This document shows, in pieces, positions 8,611-57,215 of a DNA stretch of 64,000 bases. The notes beneath the pieces are model-generated. The model was not told the origin of the DNA and ran no database searches. It saw only the letters and a program-made list of their open reading frames with translations. Position numbers and translations under genes: made by a program. This DNA comes from Mustelus asterias (Eukaryota), in NCBI RefSeq assembly GCF_964213995.1, contig NW_027590198.1, positions 434,001 through 498,000 of the forward strand, read 5' to 3'. Position 1 is the stretch's first letter. Each line of letters opens with the position of its first letter.

Positions 8611-8656
8611 ATGAGGTCGGCAATTTCTCTCAGTTTGTTGCTGACTTTCTTATCCG
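8611..8656 (+). CDS. IGHV: IgM heavy chain leader exon (MRSAISLSLLLTFLS+G)
   Basis: ATG at 8611, hydrophobic signal peptide, 46 nt ending in phase 1, donor GTGAGT at 8657; intron 8657-8789 ends in tttttacAG. Confidence 0.95.
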
Positions 8657-8789
8657 GTGAGTAGTTTTTTTTTCATTGTCTAAGTCTCCCACAGTTCCTG
8701 TCTCAGTTTTTGTCCATCTCTGTAATATTCCAGAGTCAAAAATCATTACACCAGGATTAATCCTCGGGTTTTTTTATCTATTTTTACAG

Positions 8790-9152
8790 GTGTCCAGTCG
8801 GAGGTTGTGTTGACTCAGCCAGAGGCAGAGACCGGGCGTCCTGGAGGCTCCCTGAAACTGACCTGTAAAACCAGCGGCTTCGATCTTAGCAGCTATGACA
8901 TGTACTGGATCCGACAGGTTCCCGGGCAGGGGCTGGAGTGGCTGGTTTACTACTATACTTCATCTTACAACAGCTACGCCCCAGCAATTAAGGATCGATT
9001 TAGTGCGTCTAAAGACACTTCAACCAAAATCTTCTCTTTGGAGATGACAAGGCTGAAGACCGAAGACACCGCCATCTATTACTGTGCAAGACACGTACAA
9101 CAGTGGGGTATGGGCTACTGGGGACAAGGGACCATGGTGACGGTGACTGCAG
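8790..9152 (+). CDS. IGHV: Pre-joined VH-D-JH exon of shark IgM
   Basis: Reads (G)[68 protein letters not shown]. Both Cys, the FR2 Trp and the J WGQG motif are in one open frame. Donor GTAAG at 9153. No heptamer/nonamer between V and J. Confidence 0.97.
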
Positions 9153-19793: not shown

Positions 19794-20093
19794 CGACACC
19801 GTCTCCGCCCACTCTCTACAGCCTCGTCTCTTCCTGTCAGCAACACAACTCCGCTGGCTCCATCACCTACGGCTGTTTGGCGATGGACTACTCTCCAGAT
19901 GTCTCCAAACTGACCTGGAAGAAAAATGGGCAGCTGATCGCCACTGGATTTAAGACTTATCCATCAGTGAGAAACACGAAGGGAACCTATACCCTGAGCA
20001 GCCAGTTAACCATCACCCAGTCAGAGGGAGAGTGCAGCAAAATCGACTGTGAGGTTCGACACAGCGACTCCGTCAAGAGCATTGGAATGCAAT
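19794..20093 (+). CDS. IGHM: IgM Cmu1 exon
   Basis: Acceptor ttcccAG at 19792-93; 300 nt, phase 1-1; [42 protein letters not shown]; keeps the light-chain-linking Cys; donor GTAAG at 20094. Confidence 0.95.
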
Positions 20094-20239
20094 GTAAGTG
20101 TTGTGGAACTTGGGCAAGACAGGAACGCTGTGATTGAACTGTATAAGGCTTTAGTTATAACTGATCTGGAGCATTCTGAAAAATAATGAATTATTCAAAA
20201 TCCAGGTAAGTGTCTACTGACTGAAAAGTTGTTCAGAAC

Positions 20240-20990
20240 CAAAGAACAACAGGACTGTTACTGTGCAGAATGAGGCCATTGAGCCCATCATATCTGTGCT
20301 GGCCAAAAGGGAGAACAAAGAAACTAGCCAGACATTTGGAGCCCATTTTCCAGCCCTTGCTCCGTAGCCGTGCAGGTTAAAGCACCTGAGATGCAGACGT
20401 AATGACCTTTAAAATGACCATGCTTCCTGGTAATTGAGCCCTCGACTTGGGGAATGAATTATTTCTGCCTACGTCCCTTCTAATTTTGTGAACCACAATT
20501 ATGTCACGCCTCAGCCTCCTCTTTTTCGAAGGAGAAAAACTCCTGCCTATCCAATCTCGCCTCATGGCGGGAATTTTCAGTCCCTGGCAACATTCTTGTC
20601 AGCGTCATCTCTCTCTAGAGCCATTACGTCATTCCTGCAACGTGGTGACCAGAACTGTACAGCAAACTCCAAACGTGGCCCAACTAGCGTTTTACACAGC
20701 TCCATCACTGTTTTTGCATTCAATATCTCACATAATAGAGGAACTAATCCGATATGCTTTCTTGATCAACGCGTCCAGCTGCCCTACCATCTACAAGGAC
20801 ATGTGGACATGCACGCCATTGTCTTGCATTTCCTCAATCCCTCGAAATCTTCCATTTTATCGACTATTCCCTTGCTTTGTTTGCCCTCCCAAATTCATTG
20901 CGTGGTACTGCTGACGGTTGAATTCCATTCGCTATTTCCCTACCAATTCAAGCAAACCATGGATATAATTCTCAAATTGGCAGCTCCGGT
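20240..20990 (-). mobile_element. CR1 LINE 3' fragment in the Cmu1-Cmu2 intron
   Basis: Minus-strand CR1 RT C-terminal residues (..KKRRLRRDII..) and CR1 3' tail. Confidence 0.75.
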
Positions 20991-21065
20991 GCGAAAATAA
21001 AAGCATTAATTTTAATTGTTGTCAGTTGAACCTTGAAGTAACGTCTCAACGTGTGTTTGTTGAAG

Positions 21066-21371
21066 GCGACATCCCCCCAACCGTTATCCTCACCGTGAGT
21101 TCCAGTGAAGAAATCACAAGCAGGAAATTTGCAACCATCGTCTGTTCAATCATCGATTTCCAGCCAAAGTCAATGACGGTGGAGTGGCTGAAGAATGGGC
21201 AACCCATGGATTCAGGAATTGTCACCTCTCCTGCCTGTGAAGTGAACGGAAACTTCTCGGCGAGCAGTCGGCTGACAGTCTCCGCTGGGGAATGGTCCAG
21301 CAAAACGGTCTATACCTGTCAGGTCACTCATCAAGGGCTCACTCAGAGTCAGAACATCACCGGATCTCTGG
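21066..21371 (+). CDS. IGHM: IgM Cmu2 exon
   Basis: (C)[42 protein letters not shown]; 306 nt, phase 1-1; acceptor gttgaAG (weak); donor GTAAG at 21372. Confidence 0.92.
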
Positions 21372-22261
21372 GTAAGGGATGCAAACCGAGGGAAAACAAA
21401 TCATTCATCTGGTAATCGGAATTAGAGATTTATTGAAGTTCGTGCGAAGCATAGAGCTGTCATGTAGTTTGCTGCAGTCGGATAGCGCTTCATACAGAAT
21501 TTCATCACATCAGCAATTATTTTTATTCTGTCATGACATGTTCTTCATGGCCCTTCCCTGAGAGCACTTAAGAGTCGACGACGTTGCTGTGGATCTGGAG
21601 TCACATGCATGCCAGAGCAGATAAGACAGCAGATTTACATTTTAAAAGGGCATTCGTGAACCATTTACAGCAATGGCTTCATAATGATCGTTAGACTTTT
21701 AAATATCGTTTTTTAATAAAATCAAATTTGACCATTTGTGGTGGTGAGATTCGAATCTATGACCCCAGACTTTTGCCCTAGGTTACAAACCCATTGATAA
21801 CACCACCATGCCACTGCCTCTCCTTGAAACAATGCGCCCTTCTAATTTGAAGTAATATAGTGACCGAGGCGGACTTGATGTCAGCTTCTCCTGACACAGC
21901 TGGTAAAATTTGGAGAGACAGTAGGTGTCAGACTGTTTCACAGGTCACAGCGTAGGGGTAAAATGTTGGAAAGTGCATCCACCCTATTTATAAACCAACG
22001 GCCATTAATTTTCCCTGAGTTCAGGATGGTCTATTTGTGTGGGAATGCTGCAATGCTGATTCATGAGAATGATACCGCTGCTACAATACTTTAATAAAGA
22101 GAATAATTTCACAGAGCAACCTGGTTTTCCATTCACCATAGAAGTTGAAAGGCGATAGTTAGAGTTTGATAACTCGAAGGCGACTTCGTCTCCTTTAGGC
22201 TGAATACTGCTGTCCTGCTTCTGAAGGAGAACTCGAGTTGGTTTTCATTTTTCATTCACAG

Positions 22262-22570
22262 GTCCTTCCCAGTGCCCGGATTCCACAGTCACAATACAAC
22301 CACCACCAATAGAACAAGTCTTACTCGAGGTGACTGTGACCTTAACCTGTATCATTTTCAATTCTCCTTCTGGAGTCAACGTGTCCTGGATCCGAGACAG
22401 GAATTATTTGAAATCAGAGATTGCAGAAAAGCCTGGAGAGGATCCTGACAGCGTGGTCAGCAACTTAAACATCTCGACACAAGCCTGGCTGAGTGGGGCT
22501 GTGTTTGACTGCGTGGTGAGCCATCAGGATCTGCCGACTCCTTTAAGAAAATCCATCCACAAGGAAAGAG
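22262..22570 (+). CDS. IGHM: IgM Cmu3 exon
   Basis: Acceptor ttcattcacAG; [55 protein letters not shown]; 309 nt; donor GTGAG at 22571. Confidence 0.95.
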
Positions 22571-23045
22571 GTGAGCTGAGAGATTGAAGCAACAAATGCG
22601 TCACTGTGTCTATTTCCAGTGTAAGTGTAATGGTCAATACTTAGTATTCAGTGCATTACCACTCCTCTGAGTGGTAACTCTGCTAACTAAACGCTCTGGG
22701 CCTGTAGATATTTTTGCGTGGGATGTTGATGAATGAAAAGTGATCTGAAGAGAATGGTATTGGTTTATGATCGAATAAGTAGGGAGTAGTCTGGTGTGGT
22801 GCACAAAACCCAACGCAGAACAGTTGGGCCGAATAGCCTGTTTCTGTGTTGTAATCTTTCTGAAACTTTCCAGTCTAGCCCCAGTTATTTGACAAAGCGA
22901 TTGTGTTCCCCTCTCCTCGAAGCAGGAAGTCAAAAATGGAAACATTTAAATTCGAAAGCAAAGCACAATTTTCTGATATCTAACCAGTGTTTTCATTGTT
23001 TGCAGAGTTCTCCAGTTTATTGACATTTATTGCAATTTTCTGCAG

Positions 23046-23437
23046 ATCCAAATCCGCGGAGACCGTCCGTCTCTGTCCTCCTGCCCTCGGCAGAACAAAT
23101 ATCCGCTCAGAAATTCGTCTCCCTCAGCTGCTTAGTGAGAGGTTTCTCCCCCCGAGAGGTCTTCGTCAAGTGGACCGTCAATGACCAGCCCGTGAATCCC
23201 GGGAACTACAGGAACACCGAGGTGGTGGCGGAGAACGGGAATGGCTCCTTCTTCATGTACAGCCTGTTATCCATTGCAGCGGAGGAGTGGGCCAGCGGCA
23301 CTTCTTACTCCTGCGTGGTGGGACATGAAGCCATCCCCTTGAAGATCATCAACAAAACAGTTGACAAATCCAGCGGTAAACCCAGTTTTGTGAACATTTC
23401 TCCTGTACTGGTGGACCCCGTTAGTTCATGTCAATGA
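23046..23437 (+). CDS. IGHM: IgM Cmu4 exon plus secretory tailpiece
   Basis: Acceptor ttttctgcAG; [75 protein letters not shown]. Internal donor G|GTAAA (23375/23376) for the membrane form. Confidence 0.96.
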
Positions 23438-27685: not shown

Positions 27686-27810
27686 ATTCCACAGAATCCA
27701 CCTGGATTGAAGACCAGGATGATAACAGCAATATCTGGACAACTGCTTCGACTTTCATAGTCCTGTTCTTCCTGAGCATGTCCTACAGCGCTGCCGTCAC
27801 TCTGGTGAAG
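27686..27810 (+). CDS. IGHM: IgM TM1 exon
   Basis: Acceptor cccgcAG; DSTESTWIEDQDDNSNIWTTASTFIVLFFLSMSYSAAVTLVK with the conserved antigen-receptor TM motif (WTTASTF..LF..S..YS..VT); donor GTGAG at 27811. Confidence 0.95.
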
Positions 27811-27952: not shown

Positions 27953-27961
27953 GTCGGGTGA
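27953..27961 (+). CDS. IGHM: IgM TM2 exon (VG-stop)
   Basis: Strong acceptor tttctcttttgcAG then GTC GGG TGA; AATAAA follows at 28013-28018. Confidence 0.85.
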   Translation, partial: VG

Positions 27962-28012: not shown

Positions 28013-28018
28013 AATAAA
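28013..28018 (+). terminator. Poly(A) signal candidate for membrane mu mRNA
   Basis: AATAAA about 50 nt after the TM2 stop. Confidence 0.55.
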
Positions 28019-29569: not shown

Positions 29570-29902
29570 CAGTGCTGCCTCATAGCCTAACACAATGGAG
29601 TATAATGAAGCATCTGGTCTTCAGGCTCTGGAAGCAGATGATCACAGAACAGTCGATAGTGAAAGCTACCGTCAGCCAAACTGACCCATCCTGTGTTGCA
29701 AAGACCAGTATGATGCCCACTGCACTCGTCAGGGTGGTGGACAGAACATTGTTAGAAAAGTAGATGCGGCCGACATGGTTGAGGGTGACGGCAATGATGA
29801 TGATCGGGAAATTGCTCATCGCTATCGGCACCAGGTAGTCGGTGATGCACCGGGAGATTCCGTAACGTCCTCGGGATACGATTATAATCACCAACATGTT
29901 GG
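29570..29902 (-). pseudogene. Truncated GPR139/142-like GPCR exon 2 fragment (end of TM1 to TM3)
   Basis: Acceptor ctcacAG, then ANMLVIIIVSRGRYGISRCITDYLVP..SVWLTVAFTIDCSVIIC, clearly paralogous to the GPCR at 56305. The DRF motif has decayed to DCS and the frame ends after TM3. Confidence 0.85.
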
Positions 29903-30518
29903 CTGTGAGCGATAAAAACATGGAGAGATATCACCGCGCAAACTCCAAACACCAGCTACTGCCCCATCTAATCTGAATACTTGCTGACAATTCCCTTTGC
30001 CAGCTCCAGGTTACAAATCTTCCAAAGCTATTGGTGTTTGTTCTATACCCACTGGTGGGTGAAACGTGTCAATATAGTCACCATTCCAATCAGTCCCCGT
30101 CACACACAATGCTCTCTGGTTCCTGAATCAATCCAAGGGGCTCACTGTGCAGCGGAAGATTATCCGAAACATTTGGTCCCACTGCCTTTATGCAAGCCCA
30201 TATCAAGCCCCTACTCGCTGATGTGCATTGGCTCCCAGTCTGGCAACGTCTGCGTTTTAATATCCTGATCCTTTGAATTGTCAATCACCTTCACTGTCTC
30301 ACCCCTTCCCTCGCTGTTACTTCCTATAACTACCTGAGATCTCAGCGTATCCACAATCCTGCTCTACTGAGCATCTTTGATATTAATGTCTAGCGATTAT
30401 GTCTAGTTTTTGAGTATTTCATCTCTGAAATGCTCTCCCTCAAAACCTCTGAATTTTCTTCTTGCTTTTGGATGTTTCGTACATGGAAACATAGAAACTA
30501 GAAGCAGGAATAGGACAG

Positions 30519-30804
30519 GGACAATTGCTAAAGATTCAGTGTTTGAAGTTTCTGGAAGGACAGAACATAACATTGGACTTTAAATACCCGACTGCTGCTC
30601 TTCAAACTCTGTACAGGTACATCCAATATCCCCGGCAAGCTCTGAGATTTTTGATGAAGACATGTAGCTTGGCAATACCGATATGACTCCACATTTCCCA
30701 GATAGATTGTCGGCTAATTTACACAAAGGGAACAACACTTTTCCTTTAAATGTCACTAGAGCTCTTCTTTCTGACACCGTGGTGTATTTCTGTGTCATGG
30801 AGCC
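30519..30804 (+). pseudogene. TCR alpha/delta-type V pseudogene
   Basis: After cAG at 30516-18: GTIAKDSVF / LEGQNITLD(F)KYPTAALQTLY(R)YIQYPRQALRFLMK / GNTDMTPHFPDRLSANLHKGNNTFPLNVTRALLSDTVVYFCVMEP. Matches the V-domain framework with Cys23->Phe (TTT 30579), Trp41->Arg (AGG 30615) and two frameshifts. The YFC..P ending followed by CAC is typical of TRAV/TRDV. Confidence 0.8.
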
Positions 30805-30836
30805 CACACGGATTTAACGAACCGCGCACAGAGACC
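30805..30836 (+). other. Degenerate recombination signal sequence of the TCR V pseudogene
   Basis: Heptamer-like CACACGG (30805-11), 16-nt spacer, nonamer-like ACAGAGACC (30828-36; 7/9 match to ACAAAAACC). Confidence 0.55.
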
Positions 30837-31194
30837 CCAGACTGGGAGTTCCAGTTAATGATCAGCAGAGGGCGCGCTCAACATGATAAACAGAAACAAC
30901 AATTCAGTCTCAACAACGAGTGTCACCGAATCATAAAAAAATCAAAACAAAATATGACACTCAAGAACAGCTGAGCCGCAGTTGGTTTTTAACTTGCAAC
31001 TATATTAAAAATGCATTGATGCTTAGTTAACAACCCACCTTTAGTCTTTGCTGATAGTTCGTTGCATGTGTGAATTATTCTCCATCTTCACTCTCCACTT
31101 CGAGGTCACTTTGATCAATGGGTCTATTTAGTCAGAGTATTTTGCTGGCTAAGAGACAAGTTATGTAAAATATACACTTCACAAATGTGTCATA

Positions 31195-32577
31195 GAACCA
31201 TAGGACCTGTTTGGGGACTATCAAGCACTTGGAACTAAATTAAAGAACAGGTCCTCAAGGTTAATAATCTCAGGATTCCGACCCGAGCCACATGCAAATT
31301 GGCATAGGATTGAGAGAATTCCGGAAGTTAACACGTTACTAAAGGAATGGTGCGGGAAAGAGAGGTTCCAATTCATGAGGTATTGGCATCAGTATTGGAA
31401 CAGGAGGGATCTGTACCGTTGGGACTGTCTTCACCTGAACTGATCTGGGACAAGTTTTCTAGCGAACTGGATAAATTCGGTGGTCACAAGGACTTCAAAC
31501 TAACAACGTGGGGGGAAGGGAAGAGTAAAACTACGGGAAATATAACGGCTAACAGAAAGAAAGCAGCAGGTTAGCATGTGGAGAGAAGGTTCCAACTACA
31601 TCGGAAATCAGGGGAAAAAAGTTAATAGAGAGGAGACATGATTGCTGGATGGACATGACTGAGAATTAAATATCCAGGGGTATCCGGCTGTTTGGAGGGA
31701 CAGGAAGTTAACAGAAACAGTATCCACGCATCTCTTCAAGAGTATTTAAGGATGACGTCAGGGTGGTAATGAGAGATGATATAGGTTCCATGGAAAAAAG
31801 GTTGAATCCATTTGGGTGGAAATTAGAAATAGTAAGGAGAAAAAGGTCACGGATAGGCGTACTCTATAGGCCATCAAATTATAACATCACGGTGGGACGA
31901 GAAATAAACAACATATAAACAGCATATAAAACTGGTACAGCAATTATCATGAGGGATTTTAATCTACATGTCAATTGGTCAGACCGGGAAATGAGGAAAT
32001 GCCTGAGGATTTGAACAGGTGTTTAGTGTCGGTCTTCACAGTGGAAGACACAAAAGGCATGTCAAAAATTGATGACAAGAAGGCTATGGCAGGTGAGGAC
32101 ATAGAAACTAACATTATCACGAAAGAGATAGTGTTGGTCAAGCTAATGGGGGCTAAAGGTAGACAAGTCTCCTGGCCCTGATGGAATGCAACCCAGGGGA
32201 CTAAAGGAGATGGTGGGAGGAATAACAAATGCACTCGTGGTAATTTACCAAAATTCGGTGGATTCTGGGGTGGTTTCCGCAGGTTGGAAAAGAGCAAATG
32301 TGATGCCACTGTTTAAAAGAGGAGGTAAACAAAAGGCAGGTAACAATAGGCCGGTTAGCTTAACTTCTGTAGTAGGGAAAATGCTTGAATCTATCATCAA
32401 GGAAGAAATAGCGAGACATCTGGATAGAAATTGTCCCATTGGTAAGTTGCAGCATGGGTTCATGAAGGGCAGGTCATGTTTGACTAATTTGGTAGAATTC
32501 TTTGAGAACATTACGTGCAAAGTGGACAATGGGGAACCCCGTGGATGTGGTGTATCTGGATTTCCAGAAGGCATTTG
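31195..32577 (+). mobile_element. Internally deleted CR1 LINE (ORF1 esterase end, endonuclease and RT fragments)
   Basis: WKRANVMPLFKRG..NNRPVSLTSVVGKMLESIIK..QHGFMKGRSCLTNLVEFFE, followed by DVVYLDFQKAF in a shifted frame. Confidence 0.85.
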
Positions 32578-55745: not shown

Positions 55746-56304
55746 GGTATGGTTTTGTCCAATGAGGTTCTTCACTCTGGTCGGTGTGCGGATGGAGGAT
55801 TTGTTGCCTTGCTTGCCGTTCCTGTGTCGTGAGCAGTTTTCTCCCGATCGTCTCTCCGAAGAACCCGAATGAATTTTTGACATTTGACAAATATTTCGAC
55901 ACGTTTCTCCAATCAACCCTCGTAAGCGAATTACTCCATTCATGGAAACATCAACACCAATATTTTCCATACCCGTTGAAATGTCATCAGACTCCACTAA
56001 TTGGTTGATTTCGGAAATAGAAACTTTATTAATTCATTACCGTGCACGGTAAAATGTAATGGTAATTGAGAAGTCAATGCTTGATAAACAGATAATCCAT
56101 TTTGATGATTAAGAATATACTTCTTCCATCCGTGATGTCTGCCTCCATCTAACGTCCATCTTCATATTATTAAATCAGCTGTTGTTTCTTCAGACCCAGA
56201 AAATCGCTTCAGATGCAGAAAATAAGAGTCCATGCATTTTGGTCAATGTGATGATATTATTGTGGTTTTTGCATGTAAGTTAATTCTCCTTCTGTTTAAT
56301 GCAG

Positions 56305-57215
56305 CTAATTTAGTGGCGATTGTGATCCTGTCAAGAGGAAAGTGTGGTCTTTCGAGATGTATCACTCGATACCTTATCTCCATGAATGTGACAGATCTAC
56401 TGGTCATTATCACCGCTGTGATATTAAATCGTATCAGTGCCATTTATTTTCCAGGCAGCTTCTTGTCCATCACCCCGCTGTGTAGTGTGAGCACAGTCGT
56501 AACTTACGCAGCCAGAGTGAGTGCTGTCTGGTTAACAGTCACGTTTACCTTTGATCGCTTTGTGGCAATATGCTGCCAGAAATTGAAAATAAAATACTGC
56601 ACCGAGAAAACTGCGGCTGTTGTGATAGGAACAGTCTGTGCCCTGGGCTTTTTAACCAATATCCCCTGGTACTTTATTCACGAGCCTATTTACATGGTTG
56701 ACAATGTGCCCTGGTATTGCAAACTGAAGGATATCCGGTATACTTCACTGCTATGGACAGCATATGACTGGTTTGATTGTATATTGACCCCGTGTGCTCC
56801 GTTCCTTCTAATTCTCCTGTTCAACGCTCTGACAGTCAGACATATTCTAGCAGCCAGTAGAGCCAGGAGGAGACTTCGTACAGACAATGACGGAAAGAAT
56901 CAGACTGACCCTGAGATGGAGAGCCGGAGAAAGTCCATCATTTTACTCTTCACAATCTCTGGCAGTTTCATCCTGTTGTGGATGACATATGTTATACAGT
57001 TCTTGAATGTGCGAATCACAAACGATTATAACATTAAAAGCTTCAGTGATCCCAAATTCATTCTCCAGGAATCTGGGAACATGCTGCAGCTTCTTAGTTC
57101 CTGCACCAACACCTTTATTTACGCAGCCATCCAGAAGAAATTCAGAGAAGAATTGAAAAATGCTCTCCAATGTCCACTGAACCGAATTAGTAAACTAACT
57201 ATTCCGAGAAAATAA
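56305..57215 (+). CDS. GPR139/142-like rhodopsin-family GPCR exon 2 (about 326 aa spliced protein)
   Basis: Acceptor tttaatgcAG; open frame with the remaining TM helices and class A motifs: TM2 DLL, TM3 FTFDRFVAICC, TM4 NIPW, TM6 FILLW, TM7 SCTNTFIY; AATAAA at 57287. Confidence 0.92.

Follow-up and report, generated by a model that had tools for sequence, protein, structure and literature searches.

The segment at positions 30515-31201 of the window (the whole 64,000-nt stretch analysed here, C166:434001-498000; C166, C71, C546 and the like denote contigs of the source assembly) is a real, decayed TCR alpha/delta V segment behind an IgM cluster. It is ~84% identical in nucleotides to an intact TCR alpha/delta V family of the same genome, a match far above chance (BLAST E down to 5e-89). 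BLASTX gives 71% amino-acid identity to this array V family, with VH and NAR V matches absent, so that the V class proposed in the first-pass annotation is borne out. We consider it probable that this dead V arrived behind one IgM cluster by local deletion and was then copied with that cluster.

The window holds one IgM cluster on the forward strand, comprising a leader (8611-8656) and an already joined VDJ exon (8790-9152; together 8611-9152), Cmu1-Cmu4 with the secretory tail (19799-23434), a TM1 exon (27686-27810) and the coding part of TM2 (27953-27961, VG-stop), with an AATAAA at 28013. The V pseudogene lies on the IgM strand, 2.56 kb past the TM2 stop (27961), as had been noted on first reading. 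Alignment to intact family members places its exon at 30519-30804 (+). The translated pieces DSV, EGQNITLDFKY..LYRYIQYP..LRFLMK and FPDRLSA..TFPLNVTRALLSDTVVYFCVMEP can be read across two frameshifts, again as first described. Family homology is confined to 30515-31201; it starts at an ACAG splice acceptor (30515-30518, +) retained at the 5' breakpoint, where pyrimidine tract, intron and leader are gone, right after a 36-nt dispersed-repeat stub (30480-30514) that has 97-100% matches on many large contigs and high depth. At the other end, the 3' flank (30837-31201, +) aligns with what follows intact V genes in the arrays, and a repeat stands where homology ends.

The segment is dead, through Cys23Phe, Trp41Arg and frameshifts. 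The Cys23 codon is TTT (30579-30581), the Trp41 codon is AGG (30615-30617), one nucleotide is deleted after 30669, and a 17-nt deletion after 30547 occurs only in the window copy and its counterpart on C437 (two of seven copies). Among the hallmarks of a functional V (split leader, open frame, Cys23, Trp41, Cys104, intact heptamer), only Cys104 is kept. The pseudogene would therefore have no function, as neither efficient RAG cutting nor a folded domain should be possible. Such lesions are familiar: V pseudogenes and orphons of antigen-receptor loci show frameshifts, loss of Cys23 and Trp41, broken RSSs and lost leaders. The window pseudogene shares these lesions with V orphons but adjoins an IgH minicluster rather than occupying an unrelated chromosomal site.

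The recombination signal (30805-30836, +) descends from the family's CACACTG-22-ACAAAAACC, with a 6-nt deletion through the heptamer, spanning the heptamer/spacer border, and the nonamer ACAGAGACC remaining. Hence the motif first read as CACACGG-16-ACAGAGACC is present and homologous to the signals of intact TCR alpha/delta V genes, but its 16-nt spacer is not genuine: alignment to the family shows a 22-RSS lacking 6 nt, so that the 3' RSS with a 22/23-nt spacer exists by descent in the family and is destroyed in the window copy. The leader formerly proposed at 30430-30478 (+) does not survive comparison. It is unlike the family's 46-nt leader and 192-nt intron, its sequence is confined to pseudogene copies, its GT is kept in only two of the seven, and the 40-nt "intron" behind it is the dispersed-repeat stub, without a pyrimidine tract. 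The true leader and intron have been lost, and the DNA at 30430-30478 is unrelated.

A search of the shark's own genome with the pseudogene, in which 40 of 178 candidates were scored, returned seven full-length copies at 94-100% identity and 33 matches at 78-83%. Intact genes of the family have a 46-nt leader (MCSLLCLLIIMVLLP), a 192-nt intron, an open exon and the 22-spacer signal. Open exon and signal occur together in 20 of the 23 non-pseudogene matches fetched, the other three being open in a separate check, and the leader is present in all five members tested. An intact member yields a V-set domain score, and its best single-domain PDB matches are TCR V-alpha; a representative homologue search with it gave no named shark TCR family among the 10 named of 150 matches, and two other homologue searches yielded a single match each. 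The nearest named protein to the V family is from the smooth-hound Mustelus asterias (94%). Identity of the parent family to the window VH is only 32-35%, which places it outside the IgHV/TAILV class, defined by VH-like sequence. Its members belong to densely packed arrays in which numerous V families, with 22/23-RSSs, occur in both orientations. One, at C546:35411 (+), lies upstream of a J array (from 138.9 kb) and TRAC (240 kb), a V-to-TRAJ stretch that includes one 200-N gap.

All seven pseudogene copies follow Cmu2-4, TM1 and TM2 at 97-100% identity and at constant distance, and have in common Cys23Phe, Trp41Arg, the 1-nt deletion, the RSS deletion and the loss of leader and intron. They form one clade with 100/100 support, in a tree that omitted four of 47 rows (two shortened duplicates, one partial sequence and one long outgroup) and in which several array rows represent one locus fetched twice. 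The idea that other IgM clusters carry the same 3' passenger therefore holds for all seven copies of one young subfamily but for none of 20 others: the pseudogene was not found within 10 kb of 20 other IgM TM loci (20 of the 33 other scored matches, from 115 candidates). Two copies are convergent on a single contig (C127), so the seven are not all alleles. C166 and C437 are 99.4-99.9% identical over 50 kb; this pair, as well as C1457/C127, looks allelic, which would bring the number of loci probably nearer to five. On C108 an additional, incomplete copy stands in tandem. Two of the 20 other IgM TM loci, on C132 (8285-8575 of the fetched piece) and at C71:9.058 Mb, have an open V exon from a different TCR family 8 kb behind IgM TM1, in the same orientation and with CACAGTG-23-ACAAAAACT.

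Sister IgM clusters offer a model for the arrangement before the V came to adjoin IgM. Both of the two compared (over 12 kb) read IgM, whole GPCR gene, decayed V of another family; tracked over 18 kb, they show the TM exons, a whole GPCR gene on the opposite strand and a decayed TCR-type V. The window lacks ~5.9 kb found in these clusters and keeps only the 5' part of the rhodopsin-family GPCR gene (29606-30132, -). The corresponding place in the sister clusters yielded no direct orthologue of the pseudogene; the V there is inverted and of another family. We envision a starting region of alternating IgM genes, GPCR genes and TCR V patches, in which deletions would have collapsed one IgM-GPCR-V patch and placed the V beside IgM, in what may have been one arrival event. 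Arrival by deletion seems to us about twice as likely as the other route considered, insertion of a 0.7-kb fragment. Because the lesions are common to the copies, the V would have been inactivated before the duplications, and the IgM block and the dead V were then likely duplicated together.

Rhodopsin-family GPCR genes, which we take to be GPR139-like, recur beside IgM clusters and are duplicated along with them. An intact paralogue lies in the window at 56226-57212 (+; Pfam 7tm_1), and C166 has four more in addition to this gene and the remnant; five GPCR genes were counted in 264 kb of C166.

The main competitor to this deletion history is that the pseudogene is the remnant of an old unit of IgM, TCR V and perhaps TCRdelta D-J-C, in which a V of the same clan had long lain ~3 kb behind the IgM TM exons and the rest was lost. 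Two IgM clusters on C71 (11.015 and 4.712 Mb) indeed have a same-clan V 3.2 kb behind TM1, in DNA that aligns collinearly with window positions from Cmu3 to ~29500 (67-88%), and the V patch at C71 11.02-11.05 Mb runs into a D, three J and a TCRdelta-type C gene. Shared ancestry of the pseudogene and the IgM-adjacent C71 V is not rejected by an AU test (p = 0.187). Yet the pseudogene is closer to the array genes (82-85% identity) than to the same-clan C71 V (74-75%), and the unconstrained tree groups it with the former (97/92); being nested in a family of 82-85% identity, it is younger than the family's origin. Moreover, the GPCR remnant ahead of the pseudogene is missing on C71, TCRdelta C matches are absent from the six contigs that carry the pseudogene, and the 264 kb of C166 lack TCRdelta-type J and C alike. 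The C71 adjacency, for its part, arose through a V-D coding joint of possibly somatic origin. We therefore regard such an old unit as unlikely, while giving it more weight than either of the two accounts that follow.

NAR-TCR supporting V-delta segments are leaderless V exons downstream of another V(D)J, with a CDR1 cysteine. That the window V was such a segment, whose splicing to the joined VH upstream once produced a two-V chain, is suggested by its missing leader, its retained acceptor AG and the joined VDJ 21 kb upstream. Genuine supporting V genes in this genome, however, belong to another family (32% identity over 31 aa), and the pseudogene lacks the CDR1 cysteine, a NAR V-D-J before it and a D-J-Cdelta behind it. 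The parent family carries its own leader, which the pseudogene lost by breakage, along with the pyrimidine tract. Between the joined VDJ and the V stand the complete set of Cmu exons and a poly(A) signal, VH is unjoined in other copies, and every copy is broken. This proposal is largely refuted, and we hold it to be very improbable. We give slightly less credence still to an assembly artefact, that is, frameshifts from long-read error or a chimeric join. The region is repeat-rich and fragmented, and short-read contigs from four runs (three samples of one study) carry the V segment with the 17 nt present. Against this, the 17-nt deletion occurs in two contigs and the other lesions are common to seven assembly copies, and short-read contigs span the whole V and flank the junction on both sides as far as the repeat stub. 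Where the assembly has the 1-nt and 6-nt deletions, short-read contigs from three samples agree with it, so the pseudogene is not a product of long-read error.

The wider surroundings of the pseudogene hold further TCR V segments. Four TCR-type V, mostly broken, lie 41-52 kb upstream of the window (C166:381521-393102), as does a broken orphan VH closer to it (C166:430898-431131), and C108 has four more V 20-28 kb downstream of its pseudogene copy. On C71 (20.4 Mb), IgM clusters occupy 4.7-13.5 Mb and TRAJ-TRAC 18.37-18.43 Mb. The suggestion that the IgM cluster sits in a TCR alpha/delta neighbourhood is thus supported by the four V on C166 and by IgM, TRAJ and TRAC sharing C71. As to position relative to TRAC or TRDC, a family member does lie upstream of TRAJ and TRAC on C546, but 264 kb of C166 contain no TCR J or C, and C166 itself is presumed to be linked to TRAC. 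What does not hold is the description of the segment as a fossil of ancestral linkage: the linkage of IgH and TCR alpha/delta is present-day and published (PMC12227049), and the segment postdates its family. It is likely a passenger of one event, not a relic of ancestral linkage.

TCR V exons and pseudogenes between elasmobranch IgM clusters have been reported (Flajnik et al. 2025, PMC12227049, text and Table S1), and the window pseudogene is a new instance of these published relics in the shark antigen-receptor complex. It shares with them the interleaving of TCR alpha/delta V, pseudogenes included, with IgM on the TRAC chromosome; it differs in lying only 2.6 kb from TM2 and in having been co-duplicated with one IgM subfamily, whereas the gene models of Table S1 are tens of kb from IgM. 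As it lacks a leader, gene models would miss it. Taken alone the pseudogene is of minor weight; it marks IgM clusters that duplicate together with their 3' flank. The multi-copy TCRdelta context is more surprising.

TRAC was located with a fish TCR alpha C query (a genome search with Pfam PF09291 matched nothing, controls included, and a strict J pattern gave zero matches), and during this search a second TCR TM exon surfaced in many places. By DNA searches, all 19 candidates, on 17 contigs, carry both this TM exon and its C exon: three on C71 (7138060, 11043378 and 12270523, that is 7.14, 11.04 and 12.27 Mb) and the others on C123, C115, C138, C106, C3311, C111, C110, C90, C181, C154, C850, C401, C173, C436, C96 and C119. 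The C exons are open in all 19, with AG/GT borders in the 18 checked together, which encode 13 different proteins. Identities among the C units over 3.4 kb are 83-100%, with eight groups at 98.9% or above, a spread for which allelic duplicates alone are an insufficient explanation. CLASDFSP is present in all 19, in keeping with the CLxxxFxP signature of TCRdelta C given in part of PMC10322711. The upstream regions of six of the 19 units were examined; each has its own J (1-4 segments with 12-RSS), and five have a free or joined D. The units are headed by a VH-like V at C71 7.1 and 12.2 Mb and on C110, by NAR V plus supporting V on C436, and by a TCR V directly behind an IgM cluster at C71 11.0 Mb. 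NAR V, supporting V and this C type are combined in protein models P0154, P0155, P0159 and P0161, while NCBI names the proteins "alpha chain-like". With the CLxxxFxP signature, D segments with 12/23 RSS and own J, an alpha/delta-type TM and use in NAR-TCR models, the 19 copies are likely TCR delta constant genes; the delta label follows from the signature, the D segments and the NAR-TCR models.

IgM TM or VH matches, among the 40 best of each search, fall on six of the 17 contigs as well. In the canonical TRA/TRD order, TRDC precedes the TRAJ segments and TRAC. The 224 kb of N-free sequence that precede TRAJ on C71 contain no TRDC, nor was one found between V and J on C546 apart from the 200-N gap, 9 kb before the first J. 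We tentatively propose, at somewhat less than an even chance, that TCRdelta has become immunoglobulin-like, with D-J-C in at least eight groups interspersed with IgM clusters, led by TCR V, VH-like V or NAR V and no longer nested upstream of TRAJ; the V patches, the pseudogene included, would be relics of local V pools. If true, allelic exclusion would pose the same problem for a multicluster TCRdelta as it does for multicluster IgH, and IgH-TCRdelta chimeras would gain a physical basis, relic V pools beside IgM explaining frequent trans-rearrangement through plain proximity. Duplicated D-J-Cdelta units and TCRmu clusters are described for tetrapods in sections of PMC3457774 (two Cdelta in frogs and birds, tandem TCRmu in marsupials), and separated TRA and TRD for newts in a portion of PMC12698447. 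As far as these sections go, such units were likewise duplicated or moved from TRA; the shark differs in having 19 assembly copies among IgM clusters. Excerpts of reviews assign a translocon organisation to shark TCR genes (PMC6795676), and one delta constant model per species, where any is named, stands in Table S1 of PMC12227049. The literature searched, whose coverage of key work is incomplete so that novelty is unproven, holds no report of multiple shark Cdelta genes.

Several smaller observations concern these loci. There are two different TRAJ-TRAC units, at C71:18374550-18431907 (~30 J segments detected; no V within 224 kb upstream) and C546:138887-242101 (more than 100 J), and their TM exons differ. 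The VG-stop of the window TM2 gives a KVG tail; the usual IgM tail ends in KVK. The window VDJ (8790-9152) is in-frame and the sole joined one among 40 scored VH matches; in the C437 cluster, which is otherwise nearly identical, the V region differs and is unjoined (95% identity, against 99.5% in the C region), and among the short-read records listed (69 further records exist) no contig bridges the VDJ junction. The joined VDJ may be somatic or come from another cluster. V-D coding joints also occur in two TCRdelta-type units, at C71:11023767 and C436:213728; the former uses a stop-containing V, and its paralogue at C71:4704257 is unjoined. These joints may be germline or somatic. In several IgM clusters, the V ends with D-like sequence and a 12-RSS, or the V-J distance is shortened, which suggests partial V-D joins.
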